A stretch of DNA of 64,000 nucleotides, taken from a virus. Taxonomy: Duplodnaviria > Heunggongvirae > Uroviricota > Caudoviricetes. Under the pieces are notes generated by a model, which searched no databases, was not told where the DNA came from, and saw nothing but the letters and a program-made list of their open reading frames with translations. Location: IMG/VR virus record IMGVR_UViG_3300050821_010761, positions 104,808 through 168,807 of that record. One strand, given 5' to 3'. Shown piece by piece: positions 6,455 to 57,834 of this stretch. How positions within the stretch are numbered: the first letter of the stretch is position 1; the number at the start of each line of letters is the position of its first letter. The position numbers and the translations under genes are program-made.

Positions 6455-6504
6455 TAAAAACACACTCTAAGGCTGCCAAAGCAATCTTAGATATAGAGGT
6501 ATCC

Positions 6505-6690: not shown

Positions 6691-6702
6691 GGAAATTAAA
6701 TT

Positions 6703-32059: not shown

Positions 32060-32260
32060 TCACCACCACCCAAATATGCGACCAAATATTGGTAATAGCA
32101 TTATGCCACCCAGCAATGCCGTAATGCGCTGTTCATCGGTACCAAATGTCATTCCAAGTGCTCTCAGGCTCAATAACACTATGCAATAGGTGATCATGGT
32201 TTCCCCTTTCCCCTTGGATAAAAAGCCGCGATGGTACACTTTTGTAGTCCCATGTACCAC
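32060..32260 (-). CDS. small membrane protein (66 aa)
   Basis: Two hydrophobic segments. Confidence 0.3.
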   Translation of the reverse strand: MVHGTTKVYHRGFLSKGKGETMITYCIVLLSLRALGMTFGTDEQRITALLGGIMLLPIFGRIFGWW

Positions 32261-32573
32261 CGCGACACAAGGGGGTTACTAGATAACAATGCACATAGGA
32301 TGCCAAGGTATAACCTGTTGAATTAATTGAAGTCTAGCAATGAGAATACGTCAAACTTTTATGCAAAATTCATAAAATGTTTCTATTAGCAAATGATCTT
32401 AATAACTTATTCATCTGCATAACTTCTATGCGAATGTCAATAGTTCGACGGTCAGAATGAGGCATGCGAAAAAATAGTTCTGAAAAAAGAGTTTTGTAAA
32501 AATTCGATTTTGAGGGGACTGGGTTAGCCACTCCCCACTGAACCCACTGGTGGGGCATCAACATGTATTTGAA

Positions 32574-32909
32574 TTACCAAGGTTTCCAGTCAGACCATTT
32601 CTTAGTATCGTCCCAGGACATTGGATCATTTTGCTCTAGCTCGTAGAATCGTTTGCATCCACAATCCGAACATTGCTCGCAATTGATATAAGGCACGACT
32701 CTTGCAGACTGGTCATGCGGGCAAGACAGGATGTTTTGCTCAATCTCGCGTGCGATCACTCTGAAATCTCCCATTATTTGTGCCTTCCACTGCGGTGGTA
32801 GCGTTTTCACGGCATCCTTGAGATTTGGTGTCGTATAGGTAGTATCAACTGCGCTGCGGTCCTTATAGAACGCCTCGAACACTATTTTTAATGCCTCGCC
32901 ATACTTCAC
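32574..32909 (-). CDS. Cys-rich hypothetical protein (111 aa)
   Basis: CPHD...CEQCSDCGC motif. A hairpin pair lies downstream at 32514-32565. Confidence 0.4.
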   Translation of the reverse strand: MKYGEALKIVFEAFYKDRSAVDTTYTTPNLKDAVKTLPPQWKAQIMGDFRVIAREIEQNILSCPHDQSARVVPYINCEQCSDCGCKRFYELEQNDPMSWDDTKKWSDWKPW

Positions 32910-32918
32910 AGTTCAACC

Positions 32919-33179
32919 CTATCGTGTTATTGGATTTTTGTCAAAATTCTCAGAATGAGACAGTCTCATATTGAGAATCTCAGATTGATAATCTCGAATT
33001 GGGACTGGCTTGAATCTTGCATGCATCTCAGCTCGATACGTCTCACAATGAGACGTTGGCTCGTTTATTGCATATAGAACCAATTTCTTAATAAATTCAA
33101 TAGATTGCACGTTGGCATGATTCTCCATCGAAATATAATGGAATTGGTTGATTTTGATGCGTATTTTTTTGGACCGCAT
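32919..33179 (-). CDS. hypothetical protein (86 aa)
   Basis: RBS AGGAG plus ATG (MRSKK). Coding sequence carries two perfect GAGAC-type palindromes. Confidence 0.4.
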   Translation of the reverse strand: MRSKKIRIKINQFHYISMENHANVQSIEFIKKLVLYAINEPTSHCETYRAEMHARFKPVPIRDYQSEILNMRLSHSENFDKNPITR

Positions 33180-33346
33180 TTTCTTTGCCTCACTCCTAGA
33201 ATATCCTGCTTGACGCTCTAATCGCCCCGCCATTGCACGCATGCCAAGTGACGCGATGCAGCATATGCGACCCGCAAACCCTCAAACCGTCCCATTTTGA
33301 GACAAATTTCGCCTCAATACAATGCCTTAGTCACGCCGCGCGACGC

Positions 33347-33595
33347 TTAGCCTTGGTTAGCGCCACGTGGCAGTGTCACTGGACACTGGTGTTTGGTTAC
33401 ATCAAGGCATGCATCGGTCAAGGTCCCGTTTGGCCTAACCAATTCAATGAGACCACTTAGGACCGATACGCCTAGCCCACCGTCTAATAACGTCTCGACT
33501 AAGTAAACTTGTCCGCGTTGCAACGTGCCCGTCTCGGTCTCGACGTCGCATAGTGCCTTGACAAAATCACCACGTCTCAATATGAGATTCTCCAT
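33347..33595 (-). CDS. hypothetical protein (83 aa)
   Basis: RBS GGAAGGAAACGT-ATG (MENLIL). A palindrome overlaps the start codon region. Confidence 0.4.
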   Translation of the reverse strand: MENLILRRGDFVKALCDVETETGTLQRGQVYLVETLLDGGLGVSVLSGLIELVRPNGTLTDACLDVTKHQCPVTLPRGANQG

Positions 33596-33658
33596 ACGTT
33601 TCCTTCCGTTTGGCATAATAATTGCATGCATTATTGCATATATGTAATTATTATGCAA

Positions 33659-33923
33659 TTGTTTTAATTCAATACAATCTCAATTCAATACACTAACCCA
33701 TTTCTGTCTCATTTTGAGACAACTAACCCATCTCCGTGTTACTCCAAAACAATGTCTCAATTCGAGATTAGCCTTAGCGTAGTAAAATAGTCCATCTCAA
33801 ATTGATCATTGGTCTGCAATTTCTGTGCCACCACTCTATACGTATCCCTTTGATACACGAATATTTGTCCTATCCTGAGACGCTCCCTCAAAATCAAACG
33901 TTTGATAAGTTTTACATGATTCA
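33659..33923. promoter_or_regulatory. operator-like regulatory region with perfect 17-bp palindrome TGTCTCATTTTGAGACA flanked by ACTAACCCA and AATTCAATACA direct repeats
   Basis: Palindrome at 33705-33721. Direct repeats at 33666-33692 and at 33692/33722. Intergenic region upstream of the 33347-33595 gene. Confidence 0.4.
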
Positions 33924-34844
33924 TCAATGCACTACCGTGCCAACGTCCCTAACAAAACCCGACGTGTCTCGCTTAGCAATGCCCTTGGCCTTGAGACCGA
34001 CGATCAATCCAACGGTCTCGCGAGCATCCAAAAAGCGAAAATCATGCTTGTCACCGTCAATCACCTTAAAACCCTGATAAGTCTCGGGCAATGCCGACGT
34101 CCTAAACACGGTCGCAACGTTGACGCCTAAATTCAGTGCCTTAAGGCAATCGTCCCAATTTGATTCACTGGCACTAAATGTGACATGATAGTTCGGTATC
34201 GAAACAATACGCTCTAAACGCTTGAATACTTTGGTATAATCGTAGAACGTCACGTTTGGATACAGTTCAAAAATGTTCTTGCCTGTATCACCGACCTTGA
34301 ATAACTCCCATGCCAAGTCCGAAGTCCCATTGAGTCTCACAATGACACGGTTGCTGGTCTTGGCACAGATTTTGCCTATTTCGCGACTCAAACGCGTCAA
34401 AAACGTCTGTCTAAATTTGAGAAAATATAGCGTTTTGCGAAGTCTTGGCATCTGGACACCGTCGAATAGCCCGCGTCCCGCACCGTTGAGGCATGCCGCG
34501 CGACACCCCGCCGATGCGTTAGGGCATATATTTACACCGCTAAGGTCGGATGGACTAAGGTGCAAAATCCAATTCGAGACGTCGCCTAACCCCGCGTCCT
34601 TAGCCGTTTTTGGATTGATCATGCCGTTAGACAGGATTGACACCTTAGTTAGACGCTGTTCCAAAGCAAGACGATCGTTTTGACTCAACTCTTCGAAATT
34701 GATCAGGTCCCAAAGGTCTGTCTCAAGTGGAGACAACTCCTGTTTGGCACGAATTTTGCTTTGCAATTGGTCTTTAACTTGTCTCAATAAGAAACCCTTA
34801 CCCGCATCTGTCCCAGTATGGAGCGATTGAATGATTTGTTTCAT
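33924..34844 (-). CDS. Cys-motif protein, possibly phage Gp37/Gp68 (DUF5131)-like
   Basis: Start at MKQ with RBS AAGGAATCAAA-ATG. Cys-x6-Cys-x3-Cys cluster (NICPNASAGCRAAC). 307 aa. Confidence 0.4.
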   Translation of the reverse strand: MKQIIQSLHTGTDAGKGFLLRQVKDQLQSKIRAKQELSPLETDLWDLINFEELSQNDRLALEQRLTKVSILSNGMINPKTAKDAGLGDVSNWILHLSPSDLSGVNICPNASAGCRAACLNGAGRGLFDGVQMPRLRKTLYFLKFRQTFLTRLSREIGKICAKTSNRVIVRLNGTSDLAWELFKVGDTGKNIFELYPNVTFYDYTKVFKRLERIVSIPNYHVTFSASESNWDDCLKALNLGVNVATVFRTSALPETYQGFKVIDGDKHDFRFLDARETVGLIVGLKAKGIAKRDTSGFVRDVGTVVH

Positions 34845-35038
34845 TTTGATTCCTTTAGTTCTGCATTCCATCTCATTATAAGACTGTCTATTTTCCTTAT
34901 CAATCTGGGACACTGGTCTACGTTGTCTCGAAACAATGCATTTCGTAGACGCTCCAAGTCTCGCTTCGAGAACTCCACTTGGTCTTGAAACGAGCCGTCT
35001 ACATTCAAGACGGCATCGAGTACTATTTTTGGTCTCAT
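34841..35038 (-). CDS. hypothetical protein (65 aa)
   Basis: GGGGTTATCAAA-ATGAGAC start context. ATGA overlap with the downstream gene. Confidence 0.35.
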   Translation of the reverse strand: MRPKIVLDAVLNVDGSFQDQVEFSKRDLERLRNALFRDNVDQCPRLIRKIDSLIMRWNAELKESK

Positions 35039-35062
35039 TTTGATAACCCCTTTTATCTCGTT

Positions 35063-35377
35063 TTAATTCAAACCCTGTTCGAAATCCCATAATGATACTT
35101 CGTGTGTATCACCCTCAGTCTGCTGGCATGACTCACAATGATCCAAGCAATCGTCTCCAAATGAGACAACTTGAATTTCATCCAAGCAATGCGAACAAAC
35201 TCTAACCGTCTCAATTTGAGGCTGACTCACACTGAGACTAAGTTTGCCCCAAACCAAATGCCTATAAAACCCTTGATGAGACCTATAGGTTGGTCGGTGT
35301 ATCTTAAAGTGAGTCCAGTCCCACCGTGCTGTCAAGCCAATCTCAATATAATACGCGAAAAACCAAAAGCGTTTCAT
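35063..35377 (-). CDS. Cys-rich hypothetical protein (104 aa)
   Basis: RBS GAGGAG. CSHCLDE...CLDHCESC. Confidence 0.4.
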   Translation of the reverse strand: MKRFWFFAYYIEIGLTARWDWTHFKIHRPTYRSHQGFYRHLVWGKLSLSVSQPQIETVRVCSHCLDEIQVVSFGDDCLDHCESCQQTEGDTHEVSLWDFEQGLN

Positions 35378-35378
35378 T

Positions 35379-35585
35379 TTAATACTCCTCGTTTGAGTCG
35401 TCGGACCGTATCTCAGCTAAGTGTATCTCGAACAGGTCTCGTCCGTACAGTGCAATATACGCGGTTGCGTATATTTGAGACAAAGGATCATTGGTCTCAT
35501 CCAATACGTATTGAAAGAAGTCGTCTCCTTCTGAGTCAATTATGTATTGAGCACACTCTAGTAAATTTGGTAAATCATGTCTCAT
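35379..35585 (-). CDS. acidic hypothetical protein (68 aa)
   Basis: ATGAGAC start with GGGTGG RBS. Confidence 0.35.
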   Translation of the reverse strand: MRHDLPNLLECAQYIIDSEGDDFFQYVLDETNDPLSQIYATAYIALYGRDLFEIHLAEIRSDDSNEEY

Positions 35586-35586
35586 T

Positions 35587-36051
35587 TTAAGCCACCCGTG
35601 CCCGTTCTTTAATTGTTAGAGGGATGCGTAGCGTTTTGAGGCCAAGGATTTTTTGTGCCAAAATGAGACCGTCAGCCCATTCTGAGACAAAACCATCGGA
35701 CTTGACCTCAATTGAATCACCTAGATAGTGTTTCAAAATGATCAGACATGCGGTCACGACTGTATCATATGGATACTGTCTAGTTTTGCAAAAACTAAAT
35801 GTCTCATTCTCGGACAAGTGTTCACGCATAATGAAGTCTTCGCATTGACCGACGCGTGCCGAACCATTGACCTTGAGACCGCCATATTGAAACGTCTTAT
35901 CGTGGGCCGTGTAACCAGATAAGCCACCAAATGTCTCAGAATAATATCGTACCACTTTGGCACATTTGCGAATCGCAATTTGATACTTCTTCTCCATTTG
36001 AGACGTTTTGCCTCTATTCGAAGTAAACGACCAGTAGTGAGTGTGTCCCAT
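35587..36051 (-). CDS. hypothetical protein (154 aa)
   Basis: AAAGGGGTTCAAAA-ATG start context. Confidence 0.4.
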   Translation of the reverse strand: MGHTHYWSFTSNRGKTSQMEKKYQIAIRKCAKVVRYYSETFGGLSGYTAHDKTFQYGGLKVNGSARVGQCEDFIMREHLSENETFSFCKTRQYPYDTVVTACLIILKHYLGDSIEVKSDGFVSEWADGLILAQKILGLKTLRIPLTIKERARVA

Positions 36052-36143
36052 TTTTGAACCCCTTTGTTTTGGTCTCGCGACCTATATACATCCTATCGTC
36101 AATCCGTGACAAAACTTAAGTAAAAAATGCAATGCGTATCAAA

Positions 36144-36764
36144 TTAAGACGAACATAGACCGCCGATAAGCCAACGTGTCTCGCGTTGTTTTTTATTAGC
36201 CTTAGTCTGCAATGCATCGCGATGCTCGGTGATTTTGGTCTGGACGTCCTTAAGTTTTGCCCGCAACGCGTCTCGTTTTTTTGCGTCTGTTTTTGAGACA
36301 AAGCTACCGTCACAGACTGGACATTTGAGTGTTTTGGTCCTAAATCTGGTGTCAAGTCTAGACCGACACGTCGGGCAACTAACAAACTCAATTGACTTAA
36401 GTTTTTGGTCAATCGCGGTGGATAGGTCGCGTTCTAAGGCATTGAGTTTGTTTTGCAATTCAGTGGACGTCGCTAACAGTTTGGTTAGCTTAGCATCTGG
36501 CTCAAAACGATTCGTCTCTTTATAACGCACTGCAATGGCATTCTCCCATTTTTGGCACGTCTCAGAAAGATACTCGGACGCCTCGTGGTGGCTATTGAAT
36601 TCTTTAGAATGTTTAATTTCGAGACCACGGCACATATTGAGACGACCAGAATACGACTGTCCCGACTCATGGTCGCATTCGTCCTGATAGGCTTTAAAGC
36701 GTTTCTCAAGTTGAGACTCGGTCAACTTGCCGTCTAAATCTAACTCATCAAAACAAGCGCCCAC
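36144..36764 (-). CDS. zinc-ribbon-containing protein (206 aa, GTG start)
   Basis: AAAGGGGTTTTT-GTG start context. CPTCRSRLD...CPVCDG. Confidence 0.4.
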   Translation of the reverse strand: MGACFDELDLDGKLTESQLEKRFKAYQDECDHESGQSYSGRLNMCRGLEIKHSKEFNSHHEASEYLSETCQKWENAIAVRYKETNRFEPDAKLTKLLATSTELQNKLNALERDLSTAIDQKLKSIEFVSCPTCRSRLDTRFRTKTLKCPVCDGSFVSKTDAKKRDALRAKLKDVQTKITEHRDALQTKANKKQRETRWLIGGLCSS

Positions 36765-36836
36765 AAAAACCCCTTTGTTTTATTTTGGTACACCAAAAGA
36801 CTGCCCCATTATGAGGCAGCCCTAACTGTATCAAAA

Positions 36837-37640
36837 TTATGCAGTGAGTAGCTTAGTCGCCTCGTCCCAGATTGACGCATTAAGGTCAATCGACTTGACC
36901 GACTGTTCACTGATACGTCGAGCGGTACCGTTGCGGACCGTTGCAATGCCGTTTTGATCGGTGGTGGTGGTTTGATAGCGGATGCCAAAACGAATTGCAT
37001 TCTCTTGTATCACGTTGAGAACACTAAATAAATCCGATGCCTTATCGTCGGCACGTCTAACCCTAAGCAGGTCTTGTGCCTCAATTTTGGTCACATTCTC
37101 AGTTTGAGCCAAACGAATTTGAGCTACGTTTGTCGCTAATTGAGACAGTTCAATAGCACTAACTTGACGTGCCATCATGGAACGTACCATATTGGACAAC
37201 GCTTGACGTTGCGCGACTAGTTGAGGGATGAGTGTGTTCAATTCTGATACAGGATCACCTAAATGTTTCACTTTGACTGTCTCAAAATCCCTTACACCGA
37301 CAACTAGACCGTTCTTGCAAACCAAGCGATATAAGCCTAACATGCCAACTAGGGAGCCGTAGAGATGAGGGACCTTAAAGACGATACGGAAGTCTAGACC
37401 GTCAATGCCTAGACCGTTGTCGCGTGCCTGATAGACTGCAACGGTGTTTTGAAAATCGGCGCGGTCTGGATTGCGTGCCTTGCCCGTTTTGAGACCGATA
37501 AGGTCAAAACCGTGTCCATCCAAGACTTGAGCAATTTGAGATGGTTGGATCACTTTGAAACGTTCCGACTTATCGGCGTGCCGTTGGTCTTGAATGAAAC
37601 TAGTTGAGATGCTCGGTGCCGTGTTTTGATTATAACGCAT
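36837..37640 (-). CDS. DUF932/TIGR03299-like phage-plasmid protein
   Basis: Start MRYNQNTAPS with RBS AAAGGGGAATAT. Size and N-terminal pattern resemble the DUF932 family seen on plasmids, ICEs and phages. Confidence 0.45.
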   Translation of the reverse strand: MRYNQNTAPSISTSFIQDQRHADKSERFKVIQPSQIAQVLDGHGFDLIGLKTGKARNPDRADFQNTVAVYQARDNGLGIDGLDFRIVFKVPHLYGSLVGMLGLYRLVCKNGLVVGVRDFETVKVKHLGDPVSELNTLIPQLVAQRQALSNMVRSMMARQVSAIELSQLATNVAQIRLAQTENVTKIEAQDLLRVRRADDKASDLFSVLNVIQENAIRFGIRYQTTTTDQNGIATVRNGTARRISEQSVKSIDLNASIWDEATKLLTA

Positions 37641-37693
37641 ATATTCCCCTTTGTTTTGGCACTGCAACGTTGCCGTGCCTTATATACATCTTA

Positions 37694-37873
37694 TCGTCAC
37701 TTTCGCAAAATACTAAAGAACATTTTGCAAAATATTCAAATCGTCTCGAATTAATACGTTATGAGTGGCAAAACCGATAAGACTCATCCAAAACAGCGTT
37801 TGATTGCATTGGTCGAAATGTATGGATAAGTCCCAAATCACCTTGAGCAAAATTATATGTCTCATAATGATAC
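37694..37873 (-). CDS. hypothetical protein (59 aa, below ORF-track cutoff)
   Basis: GGAGTATCATT-ATGAGAC start context identical to its neighbours. Confidence 0.3.
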
Positions 37874-38059
37874 TCCAAACTCATTCGTTTTGATCTGTTT
37901 CAATTTAAGACGTAGCTCAATCTCAATGCGAGCCACGGCAGTCTCAATACAAGAGTGTATCCCGTCCCATTCAATGGTAAGCGTACCAAAACGAGACCCT
38001 TTGCTAACTACCTCAATGATTCTATAACCATAGCTACGTTGTCTTATAATGAAACGCAT
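37862..38059 (-). CDS. hypothetical protein (65 aa)
   Basis: GGGGTGCCTA-ATG start context. Confidence 0.3.
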   Translation of the reverse strand: MRFIIRQRSYGYRIIEVVSKGSRFGTLTIEWDGIHSCIETAVARIEIELRLKLKQIKTNEFGVSL

Positions 38060-38472
38060 TAGGCACCCCGCTGTAAAATGATCTGAATAGCACCGTTAGT
38101 AAACCCGAGACGTTTTGCCTGATCAAGGGAAATCTCAAAATGAAACGTCACCGTCTTAAAACCACGCTTAGCACGGTCCCTCAAACCACCGACACTAGGG
38201 ACGCCGCCTAAGCCAAACCGTCCATATAACCAGTTCTTGCAGTCAATCACCACGCCGTCGAAATAACCGTGTCGTTTCAATAGTTTGGCATCAAGTTTTA
38301 CCTCAACTAGTAACTCAATGACGTCGGCGCCGATATAGTTTTGTCTCAAAACCGCGACCTTAGCTTGATCAAATAAAGAGCCCGTCTCGTTTGGTCCAAC
38401 CAGTCTCAATTTGGCACGTGGTATACCATCGCCCAAACCCTCGCCCTGTATCAGTGTCAATAGATGTCTCAT
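38059..38472 (-). CDS. hypothetical protein (137 aa)
   Basis: Start at MRHLL with GGGGGTTATT-ATGAGAC. Confidence 0.4.
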   Translation of the reverse strand: MRHLLTLIQGEGLGDGIPRAKLRLVGPNETGSLFDQAKVAVLRQNYIGADVIELLVEVKLDAKLLKRHGYFDGVVIDCKNWLYGRFGLGGVPSVGGLRDRAKRGFKTVTFHFEISLDQAKRLGFTNGAIQIILQRGA

Positions 38473-38536
38473 AATAACCCCCAAGTAATAGTTTGATACA
38501 CCAGCTAGCGTCCCAAAATGAGACGCTAAAGCTGTA

Positions 38537-38740
38537 TCAATTCAATTCGATCACTTCTGATACACTAAGGATTTTGCCCCAAATTGGAGCGTCGTCCCCG
38601 ATCTCAGCACCGACCATCTCATAATAGATCACTTTGGCTTCGCAAATAGCTAACTCAATCGTTTTTGCCTCAACCTGATACGTTTTGGTGTGGTGGTTAG
38701 CCATGCGTCCTAGACCTAGAGTAACTGAAAATTGTCTCAT
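38537..38740 (-). CDS. hypothetical protein (67 aa)
   Basis: GGGAGTATCATT-ATGAGAC start context. Confidence 0.35.
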   Translation of the reverse strand: MRQFSVTLGLGRMANHHTKTYQVEAKTIELAICEAKVIYYEMVGAEIGDDAPIWGKILSVSEVIELN

Positions 38741-38763
38741 AATGATACTCCCTTGTAAATGTT

Positions 38764-38988
38764 TCATTCGTGTTTCATTTTAATAACAGATAAGGCGGAC
38801 CGCCATTTAGGCAGACACTCGTCAAAACGCTCGAAAATGGCATCGCTCGGTGTTTCAAGTCCTAACTCCATATAAAGTCCAGTCTGGTTCAATCGTCCCG
38901 ACTCAAGGGCCTCGAATGTCTCAATTATGGAATCTTCTTGCATACCGATCTGAAACATATAGTTGATCACTTGCATGAGTCTCAACAT
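38764..38988 (-). CDS. hypothetical protein (74 aa)
   Basis: AAGGAGTTTATT-ATG start. The shorter start avoids overlap with the lipoprotein ORF. Confidence 0.3.
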   Translation of the reverse strand: MLRLMQVINYMFQIGMQEDSIIETFEALESGRLNQTGLYMELGLETPSDAIFERFDECLPKWRSALSVIKMKHE

Positions 38989-39071
38989 AATAAACTCCTT
39001 GGTTTGGTCGAGACTTATTCCCGACTCATACCATCTTATCGGACGATCAAAACAAAACTTTAGTAAAATTT

Positions 39072-39221
39072 TCACTCCTCAAATAAAGAGCATTCGTGCA
39101 TATTTGATACAACCTGCATCATTTTGATACAGTCGTCATGCTTAGCCTGTTCTAAATCCGTGTCAACGGACGCGCAACCGACTAAGCTAAGTGAAAATAA
39201 TACAATAAAAATGTATCTCAT
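39072..39221 (-). CDS. mini-lipoprotein (49 aa)
   Basis: GAGGTATCATT-ATGAGAT start context. MRYIFIVLFSLSLVGC signal peptide with lipobox. Confidence 0.35.
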   Translation of the reverse strand: MRYIFIVLFSLSLVGCASVDTDLEQAKHDDCIKMMQVVSNMHECSLFEE

Positions 39222-39676
39222 AATGATACCTCACCCAAAATTGCCTCAAGTTCTCGAAATAATAGACTTTTTGCTACGTCTAACATTTTGCGTTCACCAA
39301 ACGACAGCTCTCTAAGACCGCGCCACGCCTCTAGGTCCGCGTAGACGTGAGCCATCTCAATTAGAGATCCCGTTTTGATACGCTCCATCAAGTCGCGGTA
39401 CCTCATATTCCAAGTCTGGTCTGAAACGTTTGGCTTAGGTCTATTTGCCTGTATTATTTGCAATGCCTTTATAGCGTCTTGTTTAGATGCCACGTGCCTC
39501 AAACCCAACTTCTCGGCACCGTTCATCGGTACCATAATAACCATGCCGCTGTCTTTAATTGAGACATTCAAAAATTTGTGCTTAGCACCAAGCATCTGTT
39601 TTGTCTCAATCGAGACGATCTGACCAACACCGTGTCCAGGATAGACGACGAACTGTTTCACTTTAAAGCGTTTCAT
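39218..39676 (-). CDS. CarD/CdnL-family RNA polymerase-binding transcription factor
   Basis: MKRFKVKQFVVYPGHGVGQIVSIE...VPMNGAEKLGLRH...MAHVYADLEAW...LSFGERKMLD matches the CarD_CdnL_TRCF pattern. AAAAGGGGTTATT-ATG start. Confidence 0.7.
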   Translation of the reverse strand: MKRFKVKQFVVYPGHGVGQIVSIETKQMLGAKHKFLNVSIKDSGMVIMVPMNGAEKLGLRHVASKQDAIKALQIIQANRPKPNVSDQTWNMRYRDLMERIKTGSLIEMAHVYADLEAWRGLRELSFGERKMLDVAKSLLFRELEAILGEVSL

Positions 39677-39861
39677 AATAACCCCTTTTCTTTTGCCTCA
39701 ATTTTATATACTTCGTTTGCGATCAATTCGAATATGGTCCAGCTATATCTAAGTGCCTCAGAACGAGAAACAGCTGGTTGGGTGGCACGGATTTTGCGTC
39801 CATCCCAGAATGTAACAGTTACAACGAATTGTTTCATTTCTAGACATCTTATCGTTAGCAT
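39673..39861 (-). CDS. hypothetical protein (62 aa)
   Basis: Start overlaps the stop of the upstream mini-ORF (ATATGCTAA). Confidence 0.3.
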   Translation of the reverse strand: MLTIRCLEMKQFVVTVTFWDGRKIRATQPAVSRSEALRYSWTIFELIANEVYKIEAKEKGLL

Positions 39862-40022
39862 ATAATAACCTCAATTGGAAAATTGCGGTATATCATTCGA
39901 GCGGTCTCTTCGAACATAGCGCCTAGAACCATGCCGTCAATAGTGTGAACCATATAAACAATGCGTCTCGATTTGAGATCAGTCCACCGTGGCGTCAATC
40001 GAATAGGATATAGGTGTCTCAT
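39855..40022 (-). CDS. hypothetical protein (55 aa, below ORF-track cutoff)
   Basis: AAAGGGGTTATA-ATGAGAC start context. Confidence 0.3.
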   Translation of the reverse strand: MRHLYPIRLTPRWTDLKSRRIVYMVHTIDGMVLGAMFEETARMIYRNFPIEVIIC

Positions 40023-40043
40023 TATAACCCCTTTGTAAACGTT

Positions 40044-40499
40044 TCAAAACATGACAGAATCACCGTTAGCTAAGAATGTCTCACGCGCCTCAATAGCCTT
40101 AATAACTTCTTCGTGTGTCTCACAATCAGTCGGACAGATATAGAACGTACCACCTGAGACGTATCCATATGAGAATTTTTGATCACCATAATAACGTAGC
40201 GTCCAATAGACCAAACCACTAACAGTCTCGCGTATCCATTCGATACAATAGAACTCATCCCCGAACGTCTTGGCATCAATAGCCTTGGTATCACCGTTGA
40301 ATAGCTTCATCTCATTTTGGCACGTTTCTAGTTCGTCTCGTTCTACCTCAAGGCTACATTCTAAGGACCTTATCTCGCGTTTGAGGTCTTCGATCTGTCT
40401 ATAGGTGTCGTCAACGCGGTTTTGCAAGTTAGCCTCAAGGGTTTGGAGTAACTCAAAATGATTCATCTGGTTATTTGGGAATACAGAAGTCCGTTTCAT
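40044..40499 (-). CDS. coiled-coil-containing hypothetical protein (151 aa), first gene of island operon
   Basis: AAGGGGTTTTGG-ATGAAAC start context. Preceded by a 1.1-kb non-coding leader. Confidence 0.4.
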   Translation of the reverse strand: MKRTSVFPNNQMNHFELLQTLEANLQNRVDDTYRQIEDLKREIRSLECSLEVERDELETCQNEMKLFNGDTKAIDAKTFGDEFYCIEWIRETVSGLVYWTLRYYGDQKFSYGYVSGGTFYICPTDCETHEEVIKAIEARETFLANGDSVMF

Positions 40500-41636
40500 C
40501 CAAAACCCCTTGGTTAGCGTTATACCATCTTATCGGTCGATCAAAACAAAACTCAAGTGAATTTTGAATTATTTTCACTGTATCATAATGAGTCAAGGCG
40601 TAGCCGACCAATGTCTTGCAATCTTTACACCGACAGTCCGTGGTTCTCTAGGATAACAACTTAGCATGCCATTGGAACGTCCTAACCCCGATAAGACAAG
40701 AATACGTCTATTTGGCATGTTAGGACACGTCTAGGCAAAACCGTCGCTTAGCGCTGTCAATAGTTGCGTCTCAATAGGAGACGAATAGGCTTGTGTCAGG
40801 CTGAGACACCAATTCAGCCATGAAGTCTCATAGTGAGACCTTTATACGCGCCTCACCCTCCCTTGGCGCCATTCTCGCCTAGTGTAAACGCACTGGGCAC
40901 TGTCTCGTCCTGAGATATCCTGACTAAACTATTGAAACAACTAAATAATTTCGTTATTGGACCAGTGTACTGTTGTTAGACTGAGCTAAGTGACACGGCG
41001 CCGATGACTGAGCTAGTGACTGTATCGGTGTGACACAACTAGTAGTGAGCCAAATTGAAACGTTTACATGTTACGGCACGATTCTTGCAAGGGGACATAG
41101 CTTAGTCTCGTTTTGATGCGGGTGGCTAAGGACTTGGACTAGTGGGATAGGTGTGTCATTTTGCTACGTCACTAAGCTATGTCTCAGTTTGGGACTGGGC
41201 ACGAATATTGCATCCCTGCAAGCGTCCATGCCAACGGTGTCTAAGGTATATACGTATCAGATGCGGCACTGTCATGAGTTTAGACAGCGTAAACATGCGA
41301 ATCCCCTAGGGAATCTCATATCGGGATATGGCATATGGATTGCACCCATGCCCTGAGCTACTTGCTCCCAGTGTTTTAACAAAAGTGTAAATTTTATAAA
41401 TACAACAAAAAAATTTCCAAAAACTGAATTAAATTTTTTCCGAGAAATTTTTACACAAAATCGCGTCACCACAGATGCATTGTATTGCTTCCAATGGCCT
41501 CTATACGCCCTCTAATGACTGCCCCATTATTGCCCACAATCACAGCCCATTTCTCACACAGCGCAGATGAGAACCTTTGGGACGTGCATCTAAACGGACG
41601 CTGGACAAACTATTGTAAACAGTGATATAATCCAAT
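40500..41636. promoter_or_regulatory. 1.1-kb non-coding divergent control region (candidate promoters, iteron-like repeats, possible ncRNA)
   Basis: No credible ORF. Repeats GACTGAGCTAAGTGAC (40981) and GACTGAGCTAGTGAC (41007), inverted copy GTCACTAAGCT (41170). 8-bp inverted repeat GTCCTAAC...GTTAGGAC at 40680-40730. AT-rich right-hand end. Confidence 0.5.
41602..41631 (+). promoter_or_regulatory. sigma70-like promoter with extended -10 (TGGACA-N18-TGaTATAAT)
   Basis: -10 element ends 5 nt before the ATG of the HNH gene, implying a leaderless or very short-leader transcript. Confidence 0.45.
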
Positions 41637-42380
41637 ATGGACAGCATTTTAAAAACATTTAAAAAAGGTTATAAATTTTGCAGTCAGTGTAAAATTGGAA
41701 AACCCTTCTCGGAATTTAAACCTCATAAAGTCGGTCCCTTTGGTTGGTATTCTAGGTGCCTAGCGTGTTCTACTAAGAAACAAAAAGAAGTATTACCCGT
41801 GGGATTTTGTCGATGCATCAAATGTAAAGAAATAAAAGAATTGACGACTAAACATTTTCAAAAGAGTAGCAGAGCGAAATCTGGATTTGACTCAAGATGT
41901 AAAATTTGCATAGTACAAATTCGTGCTGAATATGACACATCGTACAAGAGGGAATATGCAAAAGAATATAATCGTATCCACAAAAAGGAAAGAGCCGCCT
42001 ATATAGCAAAAAGACGAAAGGAAGACCCCGCCTTCAGAGCGCGAAGTAACGTTGGTCAATGGACCAGACAATTACTAAGGGCAAATAAGCTGAAATATTC
42101 AAAAATTATAGGTTGTACGCAGGGGCAATTCGTAAGACATTTAGAGAGTTTATTCGAACCAGGAATGACTTGGGAAAATTACGGAAACGGTCCTGGAAAA
42201 TGGCAAATTGATCACATTAAATCTTTAGCGTTAGCGATTCTTGAAGGAAGTGAAAGTTTTTCAAAAGCTTGCAATTATAAAAACTTACAACCATTGTGGC
42301 ACAGCGATCATGCAATAAAAACCGCGAAAGATGTTCTTTTGATCAGATCGTTTAAGGCACCTTTTAACGCACTGTCCTAA
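41637..42380 (+). CDS. HNH-family endonuclease with N-terminal Cys-rich region
   Basis: C-terminal WQIDHIKSLA...NLQPLWHSDH (His-Asn-His spacing). Multiple CxxC pairs at the N-terminus. No SD. Confidence 0.5.
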   Translation: MDSILKTFKKGYKFCSQCKIGKPFSEFKPHKVGPFGWYSRCLACSTKKQKEVLPVGFCRCIKCKEIKELTTKHFQKSSRAKSGFDSRCKICIVQIRAEYDTSYKREYAKEYNRIHKKERAAYIAKRRKEDPAFRARSNVGQWTRQLLRANKLKYSKIIGCTQGQFVRHLESLFEPGMTWENYGNGPGKWQIDHIKSLALAILEGSESFSKACNYKNLQPLWHSDHAIKTAKDVLLIRSFKAPFNALS

Positions 42381-42501
42381 TAAAAACCCTTTTACCCCTT
42401 ATGAAAATGCAGCCATAAAAACACTTGCGTTTAGCCTTTTGGTTGTGATAGTATTGGTTTAAACAAAGCGCCAAAAGCGTTAAATCCCAAAAGGAGTCAT
42501 T

Positions 42502-42846
42502 ATGCCAATAATCACCGCCGCCCAGGCTCGTGCTCTAACTAAACGAAAAGAAGAAGTTCTAAAAAAGAAAGTTGAAGAAGAACTCGTTTGGCTTAATGAG
42601 CAAATCGTTAAGCAGACTGAAGAGGGGTATTTCGACTATACAACTGGCACCTATACCGATAAAGCCATAGTAGATCTGACAAAAGAAAATCTTGAAAAAT
42701 TGGGTTTTAGCGTTCTTCTTATAGAGACTGGCACGAATCGCATGGTTTCACGGATTGAGCGTTTTCCAGATGGTAGCAAGGACCTGTGCGCAGAATCTAC
42801 TTACGTGAGACAAGATTTGTATAAATTATACATCAATTGGGCATAG
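42502..42846 (+). CDS. hypothetical protein (114 aa)
   Basis: RBS AAAGGAG plus ATG. Confidence 0.4.
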   Translation: MPIITAAQARALTKRKEEVLKKKVEEELVWLNEQIVKQTEEGYFDYTTGTYTDKAIVDLTKENLEKLGFSVLLIETGTNRMVSRIERFPDGSKDLCAESTYVRQDLYKLYINWA

Positions 42847-42847
42847 T

Positions 42848-43156
42848 ATGAGCAAACCTAAAGAATGGTGGATCAAGAAAAATCAATACGTCAGCATGGA
42901 TCCCAACTTCTATGAAGAATTTGATCCAGTAGTGTCTGAAACGGAATTAAAGACTGGCATCCACGTTATTGAAAAATCTGCATACGATGAAGTAGTGGCG
43001 GCTCGGGATCGCTGGTATAATGAACACCAAAAAGTTCTGGATGTAAAAAATGCATTGGTAGATGAACTTGAAAAAGTTAAAACTGAATTAAAAGAACAAG
43101 GTCAAAAACAATGGCACGAAGGTTACGAGCAAGGACGAATTGATTCACTAAAATAG
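42848..43156 (+). CDS. hypothetical protein (102 aa) sharing a HVIEKSAYD block with the 47607-48023 gene
   Basis: A 27-nt stretch is near-identical at the DNA level to one in the distant gene. Confidence 0.4.
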   Translation: MSKPKEWWIKKNQYVSMDPNFYEEFDPVVSETELKTGIHVIEKSAYDEVVAARDRWYNEHQKVLDVKNALVDELEKVKTELKEQGQKQWHEGYEQGRIDSLK

Positions 43157-43199
43157 TCGGTGCGTGATAGAAACTCTATAATTCGAATAATAGTCCGTA

Positions 43200-43541
43200 A
43201 TGGACATAGAGGCTAAAATGAAGTTCACAGAAGACGACGGTATTATTACTGCCAAACAAGCTACTAAAAGAAGCCAGAATGGCACAGAAGATTCCCTTAC
43301 CCGCGAAGCAGTTCGCGGGATTATGGCTTATGTTAAGCGAAGCTCAGAATATGGATACTGGAACACAACCATATGGAATAATCCAGTTATGTCGGATGAG
43401 ATCAAAGATATTCTAACTGACCTGGGCTATAAGTTCTATTTTAAACCATGCGGAACTAGTCGTCCAGATTGGGTTCGTTGGGATTGGATTATCAGCTGGG
43501 GTCCAGAAGCCTACGGCGATAATTGGCCCATTAAGAAATAG
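43200..43541 (+). CDS. Trp-rich hypothetical protein (113 aa)
   Basis: ORF followed by the hairpin CAGGGACC-TTTT-GGTCCTG. Confidence 0.4.
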   Translation: MDIEAKMKFTEDDGIITAKQATKRSQNGTEDSLTREAVRGIMAYVKRSSEYGYWNTTIWNNPVMSDEIKDILTDLGYKFYFKPCGTSRPDWVRWDWIISWGPEAYGDNWPIKK

Positions 43542-51672: not shown

Positions 51673-51914
51673 ATAATGCCGATGATTTAAATTCAAAAAC
51701 TACCGATGAACTGGTTCAAATATTTATCGATAGCGTTCAAAACGCCTATGATCGCATATGGGTTGAATCTGCCACCGAAGAACAGCTGGACAAACTGGGG
51801 AAAACTAGTGGACTGGTCCGTCAGTGTGATCACGAATGGGTGACATGGACTGGTCTTCATGGTACCATCACAGACTGCACTAAATGCAAACAGGTCAAAG
51901 CGGATGGTATATGA
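51669..51914 (+). CDS. hypothetical Cys-containing protein (81 aa)
   Basis: ATGA overlap both sides. Confidence 0.35.
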   Translation: MNNADDLNSKTTDELVQIFIDSVQNAYDRIWVESATEEQLDKLGKTSGLVRQCDHEWVTWTGLHGTITDCTKCKQVKADGI

Positions 51915-52435
51915 AAGTCCTATTTCTCGATTTCGATGGAGTTCTGAATTCTCAACAATCAGAGATTTTCTGGCACAATAAACGTGACCAATCGCTGTGG
52001 GAAAATGAGATGTACAAGTCTTGGCACGGTACTCTTAAAGAATATATTGCACATGAATTTTGTCCCATTGCTATGTCCAATGTGGAAGAGTTGATTCGGA
52101 GAGTTCCAGATCTCAAAATCGTGATTTCTTCTTCTTGGCGCCATGGAGAAACTATCGAAACATTGAAGAAAATTCTTCACCCTTCCAAACTCATTGCCGA
52201 TGCCATAATTGACGTCACTCCGTATTTTCGCGGAGATAAGCCGCGTGGTGCTGAAATTCAAGATTGGCTTGATAGGCACACAGAAGTGTCGCACTATGTG
52301 ATATTAGATGATGATCGCGATATGTTAGAAAGTCAGAAAGATAATTTTATTAACACGTCCCCTTTCCATGGATTCCAATACGGAGACATGCTTTGGGCCT
52401 TAAGAATACTTGGCCACGCGGATAGGCAATATTAG
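51911..52435 (+). CDS. small HAD-superfamily phosphatase, paralog A (HAD_SAK-like)
   Basis: HAD motif I LFLDFDGVLN, motif II VISSSWR, motif III R-G-EI, motif IV VILDDD. Paralogous to 55912-56454 and 62682-63107. Confidence 0.6.
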   Translation: MKVLFLDFDGVLNSQQSEIFWHNKRDQSLWENEMYKSWHGTLKEYIAHEFCPIAMSNVEELIRRVPDLKIVISSSWRHGETIETLKKILHPSKLIADAIIDVTPYFRGDKPRGAEIQDWLDRHTEVSHYVILDDDRDMLESQKDNFINTSPFHGFQYGDMLWALRILGHADRQY

Positions 52436-52442
52436 GAGGAAA

Positions 52443-52655
52443 ATGATTACATTAGTTTGTTCCATCTTGATTACCGTTAATGGCGGCGGATTTGGTATAG
52501 CATCCAAGGCTGACGTTGAAGGGAAACTCATCAGTCAATCGGATACTAAATACCTTGTAGATTTCAGCGATGGTGTCAAAAAATTTGATATTTTCGGAAA
52601 ACCAAGTAATTATGACGAAGTCTTAGTTGACAAGTCTGATTGCGTAAAGAAGTAA
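52443..52655 (+). CDS. small secreted/membrane protein
   Basis: Start at MITLVCSILITVNGGG, hydrophobic N-terminus. Confidence 0.3.
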   Translation: MITLVCSILITVNGGGFGIASKADVEGKLISQSDTKYLVDFSDGVKKFDIFGKPSNYDEVLVDKSDCVKK

Positions 52656-52656
52656 T

Positions 52657-52866
52657 ATGCTACATTATTTAGTGGAATGGGGCCACATCTATCTGATTCA
52701 TGTCGGCGTACTAACTGGTTTATTGATGATTGATAATGTGCGTCGAGAAGGGTTACCATTTCCCAACAAAATGCTGATATTCAAACCCTTGGTATGGGCG
52801 CTCATATTGGCAGTCTTCTCCAGTCATAGTCACGCGCACTACCTTAATCACTTTGTTTCAAAATAG
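52657..52866 (+). CDS. small two-TM membrane protein
   Basis: Hydrophobic VLTGLLMI and VWALILAVF segments. Confidence 0.3.
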   Translation: MLHYLVEWGHIYLIHVGVLTGLLMIDNVRREGLPFPNKMLIFKPLVWALILAVFSSHSHAHYLNHFVSK

Positions 52867-52868
52867 TA

Positions 52869-52897
52869 TTGACAATGCAATTTTTATACTATAGTAT
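52869..52897 (+). promoter_or_regulatory. consensus-like sigma70 promoter (TTGACA-N15/17-TATAGT/TAGTAT) for Fis-type regulator gene
   Basis: Perfect TTGACA -35 hexamer. Gene start 21 nt downstream with RBS AAGGAAGG. Confidence 0.45.
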
Positions 52898-52917
52898 GTG
52901 TAAATAAGGAAGGTAAA

Positions 52918-53124
52918 ATGGAAAATCAACAAACAACAGTTATCGATGTAACCAATCTCCCCACTTTGCAGGAATTGGAACGTCAGTATTTGAACTTGGT
53001 CTTGGGCAGAACCTCTGGAAGCAAGGCAGAAGCCGCCAAAATCCTTGGCGTTAGCGTAAAGACGGTTTACAATAAACTTGACGCATACAAAGAGCAAATG
53101 ACGTCTACTGTCACACAGTCGTAA
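52918..53124 (+). CDS. Fis-family helix-turn-helix DNA-binding protein
   Basis: C-terminal KAEAAKILGVSVKTVYNKL matches the Fis/NtrC-type HTH. Confidence 0.5.
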   Translation: MENQQTTVIDVTNLPTLQELERQYLNLVLGRTSGSKAEAAKILGVSVKTVYNKLDAYKEQMTSTVTQS

Positions 53125-53345
53125 TGAAACATGATAAAAAAGACGAACCTGTCATTAGGTTGGACGTCACTGGCAATCTAACCCAGGAAATCATAGAAGA
53201 AGCTGCTCTTAGGTCCGCTCAAAATATGGGTCCAGCCCAAGACATGTGGATACCTGGAGTTGGTTGGATCATGAGGCATGGCGAGATTACTCAAGCTGGT
53301 TACGATTGGCTTGAACAGGAATACGGCAATAAAGAGGATAGGTAG
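53124..53345 (+). CDS. hypothetical protein (73 aa)
   Basis: TAATG overlap start. Stop TAG at 53343-53345. Confidence 0.35.
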   Translation: MKHDKKDEPVIRLDVTGNLTQEIIEEAALRSAQNMGPAQDMWIPGVGWIMRHGEITQAGYDWLEQEYGNKEDR

Positions 53346-53347
53346 TT

Positions 53348-53977
53348 ATCATCTACTTCACATCAGACACACATTTTTGGCACAAGAATGTTATCAGACT
53401 GTGTAGCCGTCCATTTGCACATCTGCACGAGATGCATGAGTACATGATCGATGAATGGAATAAGCGCGTCAGAAAGCCTACGGATAAAATTTATGTTTTG
53501 GGAGACTTCTCGTTTGCCAATGGCACAATGACAAGGCCCATACTTGAACGTCTAAACGGCTATAAAATATTGATTGCTGGCAATCATGATAGGCATGCCA
53601 AGCATATGTTGGATATGGGTTTTCAAGAAGTACACGAGAACATTTGGATTGAGATTGGTAATAAACAGAAAGTTTTCTTGAGCCATTTTCCTTTCCATCC
53701 GATGAATGCTTATGGCAAATATCCAGATGGCCGTATTGAAATTGGTTATCCATATGAGAAGATAGACACGCGCTACATGCATAAGCGTATTGTAGACGAT
53801 GGTACGCAGTGGTTGATCCACGGACATGTCCACGGTGCATGGAAACAGAATGGTCGTCAAATTAATGTTGGTGTGGATGTTTGGGATTTTAAGCCAGTTT
53901 CACATGAAAAGATTCTACAGATTATTAAAGCTGGACCAAAATTTGAGGGAAAATCCACAGACGATTACGGAGATTAA
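53348..53977 (+). CDS. calcineurin-like metallophosphoesterase (start codon unresolved)
   Basis: Motifs GDFS, GNHD and HGHVHG are present. Motif I (IIYFTSDTHF) lies in-frame upstream of the first ATG (53432), in a stretch with no ATG/GTG/TTG after a TAG at 53339. Confidence 0.55.
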   Translation: MIYFTSDTHFWHKNVIRLCSRPFAHLHEMHEYMIDEWNKRVRKPTDKIYVLGDFSFANGTMTRPILERLNGYKILIAGNHDRHAKHMLDMGFQEVHENIWIEIGNKQKVFLSHFPFHPMNAYGKYPDGRIEIGYPYEKIDTRYMHKRIVDDGTQWLIHGHVHGAWKQNGRQINVGVDVWDFKPVSHEKILQIIKAGPKFEGKSTDDYGD

Positions 53978-53978
53978 T

Positions 53979-54260
53979 ATGGAAAAAGAACTTAGTGCAG
54001 AACAAAGGAAACAATTAAGTAAAGTAGGAAGAACGTTTTTTCTAAAATCGTTTTTTAATGGAGTGCAGCACGCCATAATGCTGATGCTGGTAAATTTTAT
54101 TTTGGTTATGTCTGCACAAATTTTCGATATTCCAGAACCACTCGCTTTCATTGTAGCACTTGTTGGGGGCTTTTTTGTTATCCGCAGAATGTTCTCGATT
54201 AACTTTGAAAATTATGATAGATTCAAGAACGAAATCAAAGCAATCTTAGAACCAAAATAA
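53979..54260 (+). CDS. membrane protein (94 aa)
   Basis: TAATATG overlap start. Two TM segments. Confidence 0.35.
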   Translation: MEKELSAEQRKQLSKVGRTFFLKSFFNGVQHAIMLMLVNFILVMSAQIFDIPEPLAFIVALVGGFFVIRRMFSINFENYDRFKNEIKAILEPK

Positions 54261-54276
54261 AAATTAGGAGACATCG

Positions 54277-55905: not shown

Positions 55906-55911
55906 TGAATT

Positions 55912-56454
55912 ATGAAAGTAATTTTTTTAGACTTTGATGGCGTTTTAAATTCAGCTACCTCCTTTCTTTACGAAGTGAATCGCCGTAATAAACACAAAGA
56001 ACAGGGCGTAAAGGGTCCAGTCAACGAAACTCTATCTTTACATTGCTGCGCAGCATTCCAATTTGTATTAGATCAGTATCCAGACGTTAAAGTAGTGCTT
56101 TCCACTACCTGGCGCACTATGTTCACCATAGATTGGTTAAAAGCCAAGCTTGAAGAGTATCACATTGATTCATCTCGCGTTATCGATAAGACACCACAGA
56201 CTTTTGGCGGTAATAGAGGTCGCGAGATCGAAATTTGGCTACGTGATCATCCAGAAATCACGCATTTCGTGGCCATTGATGACAATGACGATGGCATATC
56301 TGCCTATTTCGGCAAGGATCGTTTCGTCCAGACGGATTGGGAACGTGGCATGGGCGTACAACATGCTGCCGAACTATGCGAAAAACTTTCTGCCAAAAAT
56401 CTTAAAAAAGTTAAAGAAAGACTGAAAAAAGAAGCCAAGGAAGATGAGGAATAG
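55912..56454 (+). CDS. small HAD-superfamily phosphatase, paralog B (HAD_SAK-like)
   Basis: VIFLDFDGVLNS, VVLSTTWR, RG-EIEIWL and VAIDDNDD motifs. Confidence 0.6.
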   Translation: MKVIFLDFDGVLNSATSFLYEVNRRNKHKEQGVKGPVNETLSLHCCAAFQFVLDQYPDVKVVLSTTWRTMFTIDWLKAKLEEYHIDSSRVIDKTPQTFGGNRGREIEIWLRDHPEITHFVAIDDNDDGISAYFGKDRFVQTDWERGMGVQHAAELCEKLSAKNLKKVKERLKKEAKEDEE

Positions 56455-57338: not shown

Positions 57339-57453
57339 CAAAAGAAGCTGTGATGTTTTCTAGCTCTGTAATCATTTCAACGTTGTTATTTGGTCTTGGG
57401 ACCACGCCAGCCCTATTTATTTTCGGCTTCATTTGGTTACTTTGGGGCGAACC

Positions 57454-57834
57454 ATGAAGTTCATCGTGGCAGGCAGCAGGACCATTCAGGAAATTACGGC
57501 TTATGGTCAGCTGGTAGAATTGCGTATTGCTAAAACGCATCCATTTTGTAATGCAACAGAGATCGTTTCTGGTACCGCCAAAGGACCAGACAAAGCTGGC
57601 GAGATCTATGGTGATTTCTATGGTATCTCCGTTACTAAATTTCCTGCAGAATGGGATAAGTATGGCAAACGTGCTGGTCCGATAAGAAACAATAAGATGG
57701 CAGTCTATGCCGATGCCCTACTTTTGATTTGGGACGGTCAGTCAAAAGGATCTAGACATATGAAACAAGCCATGCTAACATTGAATAAACCAGTGTTCGA
57801 GCTTATTTTGGAGCCATACAATGAAACGAAGTGA
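57454..57834 (+). CDS. SLOG-superfamily (DprA/LOG-like, DUF2493-type) protein
   Basis: N-terminal VAGSRTI Gly-Ser-Arg motif, SGTAKGPDKAGE and WDGQSKGSRH pattern. Confidence 0.4.
   Translation: MKFIVAGSRTIQEITAYGQLVELRIAKTHPFCNATEIVSGTAKGPDKAGEIYGDFYGISVTKFPAEWDKYGKRAGPIRNNKMAVYADALLLIWDGQSKGSRHMKQAMLTLNKPVFELILEPYNETK

Follow-up and report, generated by a model that had tools for sequence, protein, structure and literature searches.

What does more than a kilobase of DNA without open reading frames (ORFs) do at the point where the genes of a large phage turn away from each other? We examined this question for positions 40500 to 41636 of a 64,000-nt stretch, hereafter called the window, which belongs to a metagenomic phage contig of 168.8 kb (ENA ERZ27253637 k141_5289317); over the ORF-free region, the window and a Logan contig from SRR7093794 have identical sequences. 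The left two-thirds of this region proved to be the upstream end of an array of dispersed 15-bp palindromes that also covers the adjoining leftward early operon. Our leading, though still tentative, reading is that the ORF-free stretch is a conserved cis-acting protein-binding DNA hub (operator, origin or both) at the head of that operon.

The region is the longest non-coding gap of the window, as the original prediction made from the sequence alone had claimed. It contains no ORF longer than 67 aa and 16 to 25 stop codons in each of the six frames, and the runner-up gap measures 382 nt by a crude greedy ORF call. The flanking genes diverge (40044-40499 on the minus strand and 41637-42380 on the plus strand), and gene direction is leftward for all of 12.7-40.5 kb and rightward from 41.6 kb, confirming the proposed switch in transcription. 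The described gradient in composition was likewise found, with a GC content of 0.47 to 0.505 at 40600-40900 and 0.365 at 41300-41499, compared to about 0.38 to 0.45 in the flanks. Six-frame translations searched against Pfam and PHROGs gave nothing better than E = 0.03, and we rejected a pseudogene, the alternative that the original prediction had raised against itself.

A palindrome array over the leftward early operon

The array and the terminator beyond it comprise the following features.

32332-41195, no strand: dispersed palindrome array, full extent; 30 copies with at most one mismatch, 73 with at most two
40768-40916, no strand: cluster of four palindromes, starting at 40768 (0 mismatches), 40793 (1), 40825 (0) and 40902 (1)
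41181-41195, no strand: rightmost palindrome copy, 1 mismatch
40580-40594, 41022-41036 and 41105-41119, no strand: weaker copies with 2 mismatches, from the mismatch scan
32220-32264, minus strand: strong intrinsic terminator, 12-bp stem CGCGGUGGUACA/UGUACCAUCGCG, then GCUUUUU

This repeat system, built on the palindrome GTCTCA-N3-TGAGAC, had escaped the original prediction and is much larger than the repeats described there. We searched for the pattern GTCTC-N5-GAGAC and counted copies at up to one or up to two mismatches. With at most one mismatch the window contains 30 copies (1.15 expected), all of which lie within 32947-41195; with at most two it contains 86, including the 73 within 32332-41195. 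The consensus is Y-GTCTCA-WWW-TGAGAC with an A/T-rich center. The two half-sites are always exactly 5 nt apart, and there is no general enrichment of palindromes, so the motif is sequence specific. The 5-mers of the palindrome occur 9.8 times per kb inside the array, 0.56 times per kb to its left and 1.2 times per kb to its right. Avoidance of GTCTC as a restriction site outside the array was considered and found unsupported against a Markov expectation (observed/expected counts of 13/17, 5/10, 9/11 and 19/18).

Most copies lie within coding sequence, in all three frames. A palindrome repeated in this way across the genes of one operon, and kept in several lineages, must be under strong selection as DNA or RNA in addition to that on the encoded proteins. 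The terminator at 32264-32220 follows 68 nt beyond the last copy and marks the end of the array-bearing leftward operon; our consensus terminator scan missed it because its loop is 14 nt long. Three copies (37859-37873, 38734-38748 and 39215-39229) are identical or nearly so (GTCTCATAATGATAC). Those at 37859 and 39215 contain the overlapping stop-start ATGA of adjacent leftward genes, and the one at 38734, the same 15-mer as that at 37859, spans an in-frame ATG.

The array is not confined to this phage. L162 (first found as L084) is a true relative, with eight proteins 32 to 66% identical to those of the window and in the same order, and a search with the DUF932 protein encoded at 36837-37667 found many further relatives. 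Dispersed copies with at most one mismatch number 22 to 23 in L162, 21 in L164, 18 in L170, 13 in L168 and 5 in L166, and the DUF932 proteins of the array-bearing relatives are 60 to 74% identical. The array-bearing early operon carries DUF932 and GP88 genes, together with Acb5 in some relatives. Because the positions of the palindromes inside the DUF932 gene vary between phages, selection acts on the presence of copies rather than on the encoded peptide. Six contigs from separate assemblies (L162, L163, L164, L165, L169 and L170) all start in the 2.1 kb that precede the DUF932 gene; either assembly was broken there by repeats and variable genes, or a genome end is nearby.

The same palindrome recurs in quite different settings. 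Scanning IMG/VR for adjacent copies yielded more than 119 loci, many of them compact arrays of 3 to 9 perfect copies at a spacing of ∼21 to 24 bp (range, 20 to 34 bp). The compact array lies within one ORF of 246 to 392 aa at 15 of 17 loci, and in the middle third of the ORF in 14 of these; two of the three array-bearing ORFs tested match both the PHROG "replication initiation O-like" and the Pfam family HTH_36. This placement is that of the lambda origin, although the phages in question are unrelated to the window phage. Palindrome pairs are also widespread in bacterial genomes, and a Bdellovibrionales chromosome carries them in two AT-rich promoter regions upstream of pilin-like operons. Judging from the O-like-gene arrays, a par locus and the pilin promoters, the palindrome serves as a DNA-binding site elsewhere. 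That the motif sits in untranscribed promoter and par contexts as well as in iteron arrays argues for recognition of double-stranded DNA.

Several of these bacterial occurrences can be specified. The pilin-like operons are paralogous, and the AT-rich promoters of the two carry perfect palindrome pairs at L228 1172-1226 and L243 5917-5971. On a Bdellovibrionota contig (L253, 6330-6520) a palindrome repeat array precedes the gene of a ParA-type ATPase that has a helix-turn-helix (HTH) at its N terminus. Motif pairs recur, either at several loci or at a single locus conserved within a species, in a Candidatus Wallbacteria metagenome-assembled genome (MAG; L192, L200, L206 and L225), in a Bacillota MAG (L195, L202, L220, L223 and L232) and in many Nocardioides genomes, which suggests a widespread operator class. 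Eight of the 52 motif pairs located within an ORF are in O-like genes.

Conserved blocks, promoters and repeats of the ORF-free region

A blastn search with 40000-42400 against 50,697 phage records gave no match. The sole homologue of the region is L163:1-781, which aligns from ∼41356 back to ∼40500 (nhmmer E = 3e-29). The comparison with related phages proposed earlier thus showed a region conserved in blocks and without coding. As the small genes between the ORF-free region and the DUF932 gene are not orthologous in the window and L163, the non-coding DNA is better conserved than the genes beside it, and this block conservation indicates a cis-acting function. The conserved parts are blocks of the leader, TGCAATCTT...GACAGTC, GCAAAACCGT, a 48-nt hairpin and the block at 41245-41352. 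Not conserved in L163 are the four palindromes, the hairpin at 41092-41185, the global fold and the segments 40760-40900 and 41100-41245. The A/T tract is not comparable, since the L163 contig starts at the equivalent of 41356. The region contains these parts.

40522-40553, minus strand: 32-nt leader element ATACCATCTTATCGGnCGATCAAAACAAAACT, from repeat comparison
40568-40596, minus strand: leftward sigma-70-type promoter-like site, TTGACT-17-AATAAT, 10/12 matches
40679-40726, no strand: 48-nt hairpin or inverted repeat, arms GTCCTAAC/GTTAGGAC at 40679-40686/40719-40726
40979-41020, plus strand: two direct copies of GACTGAGCTA(A)GTGAC, from the ACTRAGCTA(A)GTGA family
41094-41111 and 41166-41183, no strand: inverted pair of the ACTRAGCTA(A)GTGA family, 18 nt, 89% complementary
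41245-41352, no strand: best-conserved block, ∼85% identical to L163:5-111
41375-41460, no strand: AT-rich segment with phased A/T runs, eight A or T runs of 4 to 7 nt
41420-41391, minus strand: weak promoter-like site in the A/T tract, 9/12 matches
41602-41631, plus strand: rightward promoter-like site, TGGACA-18-TGaTATAAT, 11/12 matches, extended -10

Promoter-like sites were thus found in both directions, as the suggestion of divergent promoters had anticipated. The leftward site is overlapped across its -35 hexamer and spacer by the 2-mismatch palindrome copy at 40580-40594. The 32-nt leader element recurs, with one position changed, ahead of a second leftward gene (39028-39059), and the pair is probably a repeated early promoter-leader cassette. 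L163 and L164 have retained parts of the element, and related copies occur in L164. The rightward site ends 5 nt before the ATG at 41637 with no Shine-Dalgarno sequence visible between, so the mRNA of that gene may be leaderless. The position of this near-consensus promoter, directly before the first rightward gene, also makes it unlikely that the region is a long leader of the rightward "island operon," as had been suggested. In L168, three tandem copies of ATTCACGATAAT(G/A)T occupy 8900-9160, in a 764-nt ORF-free gap just upstream of the L168 array, and look like stacked early promoters.

The gene at 41637-42380 encodes an endonuclease-VII/HNH-like protein, and we considered an intron with a homing endonuclease gene. 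It was excluded because the flanks diverge and the 121 nt after the endonuclease gene contain an ordinary promoter-like site and a Shine-Dalgarno sequence; no intron model matched.

The repeats of the original prediction are real, and those of the ACTRAGCTA(A)GTGA family are iteron-like. The near-identical direct repeats lie at 40979-40994 (GACTGAGCTAAGTGAC) and 41006-41020 (GACTGAGCTAGTGAC), and the inverted copy at 41168-41178, inside the 18-nt inverted pair. By our estimate, the exact 10-mer shared by GACTGAGCTAAGTGAC and GACTGAGCTAGTGAC is expected ∼0.6 times by chance in 1.1 kb, but their match at 15 of 16 positions with one gap is far rarer. The family recurs 4 to 5 times at the same place in L163 as in the window phage, in a different arrangement: where the window has the hairpin at 41094-41183, L163 has tandem copies with a 24-nt period. 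The 8-bp inverted repeat was present too, although its arms are 32 nt apart rather than 35, a distance at which it is by itself within chance expectation. Its outer arms (GTCCTAAC/GTTAGGAC) are 100% identical in L163, and the apical stem differs yet still pairs, with one compensatory and one wobble change. On neither strand did the best-conserved block, examined as a possible small RNA, give a convincing consensus fold.

Exact 18- and 19-mers from the L163-conserved blocks had only chance matches in metagenome and viral collections. One 19-mer, GGCACTGTCATGAGTTTAG, occurs exactly in one unrelated IMG/VR phage lineage (five contigs, L182-L186); we took this as coincidence because there is no similarity in the flanks. 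In L163 we also observed tandem repeats (CGTGGCGTGGCCACGCGTGCAGG...) with a 55-bp period at 4640-5260, as well as CGTKGC words that show a strand bias, in long gaps of the operon where ORFs are lacking (5104-5790 and 6083-7076). No motif replacing the palindrome could be defined in that phage, and a second over-represented word, CAAAAC/GCAAAA, was inconsistent across the relatives and was dropped.

A proposed DNA control hub and its rivals

How might these parts work together? A dimeric, sequence-specific DNA-binding protein, encoded by the phage or by its host, would bind the palindromes. Proteins of this kind may assemble on a site made up of the palindrome cluster (four copies), the A/T tract and the ACTRAGCTA(A)GTGA repeats, and this site would be a replication origin, an operator for shutting down the early operon, or both at once. 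Within the operon, the palindromes could then be roadblocks or keep the binding protein in reserve. We favor this DNA-level reading because it explains the repeat families, the A/T-centered palindrome, the promoters, the A/T tract and a conservation that follows blocks rather than pairing.

Several observations weigh against it. L163 keeps the region without palindromes in either region or operon, having a single copy although its DUF932 protein is 73% identical. The comparison moreover depends on this single, cut-off homologue, a 176.9-kb contig (3300077761 Ga0645787_0091) that starts at the equivalent of 41356, just before the A/T tract. In the window itself, that tract (41375-41460) is separated by 459 bp from the four-copy cluster and by 180 bp from the last lone palindrome, unlike the adjacency seen in lambda. 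A candidate binding protein is also missing: Pfam revealed no HTH regulator among the 36 window proteins scanned, and an O-like initiator was absent from the window's 860 stop-to-stop ORFs and from the relatives' loci, as judged by an O-like N-terminal-domain hidden Markov model (HMM) and phmmer. The cumulative GC-skew minimum at 41559 is no independent evidence, since it coincides with the switch in gene orientation. Finally, a model based on DNA alone leaves the strand-specific stability of the predicted RNA fold (z = -5.9 versus -0.7) unexplained.

For the replication origin that had been proposed, the balance is therefore mixed: iteron-type palindromes, the A/T tract and the skew minimum make it plausible, while the confounded skew and the missing initiator gene leave it unproven. 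An origin dependent on DnaA was rejected, as the region has one TTWTNCACA box and the window 13 (8.35 expected), with no cluster.

The fold signal belongs to the strongest rival, which we nonetheless consider unlikely: that the region encodes a structured plus-strand non-coding RNA, transcribed rightward from ∼40595 and comprising domain A and perhaps also 41062-41392. Such an RNA might act alone, or it might extend into the A/T tract as a structured pre-primer or an R-loop RNA, much like ColE1 RNA II or the T4 oriF/oriG transcripts. The predicted domain is the following.

40625-41033, plus strand: predicted closed RNA "domain A," minimum free energy of -149.2 kcal/mol

This energy compares to a shuffle mean of -110.2 kcal/mol (z = -6.94; reverse strand, z = -1.48). 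When 2120 420-nt windows from the two strands of the 64 kb were ranked after correction for composition, domain A came out on top, at -5.0 standard deviations (next, -3.75). When the palindromes were held fixed in the shuffles, z was still -5.9 on the plus strand (minus, -0.7), so the signal is not a by-product of the palindrome. The homologous segment of L163 showed the same strand bias (z = -3.9 versus -1.3; 20 shuffles), and the hairpin at 40679-40726 is conserved with its one compensatory change. Against the RNA stands the fate of the global fold: mapped to L163, the minimum-energy structure kept 88 pairs, with 91 broken and 72 gapped, and its 12 double-sided changes did not exceed the 10 to 15 found in controls with partners slid by 1 to 3 columns. 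The long hairpin at 41092-41185 is missing from L163 altogether. Domain B (41062-41392) was not significant on the plus strand (z = -1.7; minus, -2.9), and 200-nt windows with z below -5 exist elsewhere in the genome (background minimum, -6.6). No convincing plus-strand promoter or terminator was found for such an RNA. Rfam 15 at gathering thresholds had no match in the whole window (GOLLD, ROOL, group I/II introns, RNase P, tmRNA and 6S included), and at E ≤ 10 only chance-level matches over 40300-41800 and 41600-43300; no tRNA or tmRNA gene was found in the window. The two checks that the original prediction had proposed for a structured RNA, folding and Rfam, therefore diverged: the single-sequence fold on the plus strand is strong (z = -6.9), but Rfam was empty, and L163 retains one hairpin rather than the fold as a whole.

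A somewhat poorer prospect, in our estimate, is that the palindromes act in RNA. A leftward transcript from the 41420-41391 promoter would then carry the ORF-free region as a leader of ∼880 nt, and 30 to 70 GUCUCA-WWW-UGAGAC hairpins would bind an RNA-binding protein or nuclease controlling the stability, translation or antitermination of early mRNA. All 73 copies do lie between this putative start and the terminator at 32264-32220, the L168 array begins downstream of the three tandem promoter-like repeats with none in the 9.6 kb upstream, and the motif embeds start signals of leftward genes (the ATGA at 37859 and 39215 and the in-frame ATG at 38734). Departures from the consensus also leave a G-U pair more often in the sense than in the antisense RNA (106 versus 68), but this weak bias would follow from a transcription-linked C-to-T skew, and 185 of the 371 deviations disrupt the pair fully. 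The promoter at 41420-41391 matches at only 9 of 12 positions, fold stability favors the plus rather than the minus strand, and the motif's untranscribed promoter and par-locus contexts and iteron arrays elsewhere favor recognition of double-stranded DNA.

A packaging (pac) site, genome terminus or T5-like injection-stop region appears very unlikely. It would account for the six related contigs whose starts fall no more than 2.1 kb ahead of the DUF932 gene, for the start of the 176.9-kb L163 contig just before the A/T tract and for the combination of repeats, inverted repeats and A-tracts beside an early operon of ∼8 kb. However, the window's 168.8-kb contig has no end here, and a 49-kb Logan contig reaches 42966, crossing the region and running left past window position 1. 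The assembly breaks are explained equally well by the duplicated 32-nt leader element and strain-variable early genes, and no terminase-linked evidence was found. The least probable alternative of all, a functionless spacer or decayed gene remnant, draws on the lack of conservation of 40760-40900 and 41100-41245 in L163, but is countered by the block conservation with L163 (E = 3e-29) while adjacent genes were replaced, by the lack of protein similarity in any frame and by the organized repeat families of both phages.

Returning to the DNA hub, a wider proposal can be attached to it, to which we give low credence: a clade of large lytic myoviruses would overlay its early operon with a field of 4 to 9 kb holding 20 to 70 initiator- or operator-type palindromes, the ORF-free region being its nucleation end. 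This might be a new operon-wide silencing or roadblock system, or a decoy that soaks up a DNA-binding protein of the host or of a rival element. The palindromic site is also present at O-type origins and, in Bdellovibrionota, which is probably the phylum of the host, at a par locus and at host promoters. Repeat-bearing intergenic control regions are common in phages, but 30 to 70 copies of a palindrome across the coding sequence of one early operon are something that we could not match to any described system. The array links the iteron class of lambda-O-like initiators to a very different architecture, and the 15-bp site, the defined operon and the defined nucleation region offer a handle on early-gene shut-off and the start of replication in an uncultured group of phages.

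Known systems, neighboring genes and host

Among known systems, the lambda origin lies in the middle of gene O and consists of O-bound iterons together with an AT-rich tract (PMC7466680). The window resembles it in having a dyad-symmetric palindrome with an A/T-rich center, the same motif as in the O-like-gene arrays, and in its four-copy cluster and AT-rich tract. The spacing in the cluster (25, 32 and 77 bp) is looser than the ∼21 to 24 bp of the arrays in O-like genes; compact arrays elsewhere range from 20 to 34 bp. Moreover, the cluster lies in non-coding DNA, no O-like gene was found in the window or the relatives' loci, the AT tract is ∼460 bp away, and the majority of the palindromes are dispersed through 9 kb of coding sequence that is unrelated.

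The stoperators of cluster A mycobacteriophages are one short site dispersed through transcription units, including positions at which elongation would be blocked by a bound protein (PMC9283540, PMC6550527). The 30 to 73 copies of one site between promoter region and terminator are a point of likeness. Stoperators are, however, asymmetric, orientation dependent, mostly intergenic and genome-wide, and are bound by a monomeric immunity repressor, whereas the window site is palindromic, mostly intragenic and restricted to a single operon, with no repressor found among the proteins scanned.

In P1 incA, an extra iteron array titrates or "handcuffs" the initiator. A precedent for extra iterons in trans is provided by plasmid-borne ori-lambda iterons with oop, which can exclude rep-lambda phages (PMC3349717). 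As in these cases, which can control or inhibit replication, the window has initiator-type sites outside a functional origin; the known arrays are compact, with fewer than 10 sites in a few hundred bp.

RNA-primed origins (ColE1 RNA II, T4 oriF/oriG and the T7 primary origin) consist of a promoter and a transcript that runs into an AT-rich unwinding tract, and ColE1 RNA II is a structured RNA of several hundred nt. The window differs in that no plus-strand promoter was found for such an RNA and the fold is not kept in L163. GOLLD, ROOL and similar RNAs in Rfam share with the region the size class of 400 to 800 nt, the phage context and a very stable predicted fold, but the region has neither an Rfam match nor covariation support (one homologue). 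None of these closest systems combines a palindromic site, intragenic placement, restriction to one operon and clade-wide conservation.

The neighboring genes give some indication of the host. A gene for a CarD-like RNA-polymerase-binding protein lies at 39218-39676; its nearest homologues are bacterial (∼52% identical), and among the few that are named the best-scoring one is labelled Bdellovibrionales and others are of the Desulfobacterales type. The host may thus belong to Bdellovibrionota or to a group close to it. Short CarD genes also occur in other large phages (L038 and L041), and phages carrying CarD proved not to be syntenic when considered as homologues of the locus. The tail sheath shares 42% identity with its counterpart in Myxococcus phage Mx1, a relationship found in the structural module only. 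The left neighbor of the region (151 aa) is an orphan for which homologue searches came back empty, and relatives of the 41637 endonuclease lie at unrelated loci. Further afield, 51884-60507 and 19438-20337 hold a large RNA-repair set comprising three HAD_SAK_2 proteins, RlaP, a PNKP-like kinase-phosphatase, a T4 Rnl1-type RNA ligase and a Thg1-like enzyme. The small rightward genes at 42502-42846 and 43200-43541 look like paralogues, sharing ...IITA.QA... and ...GY... segments.

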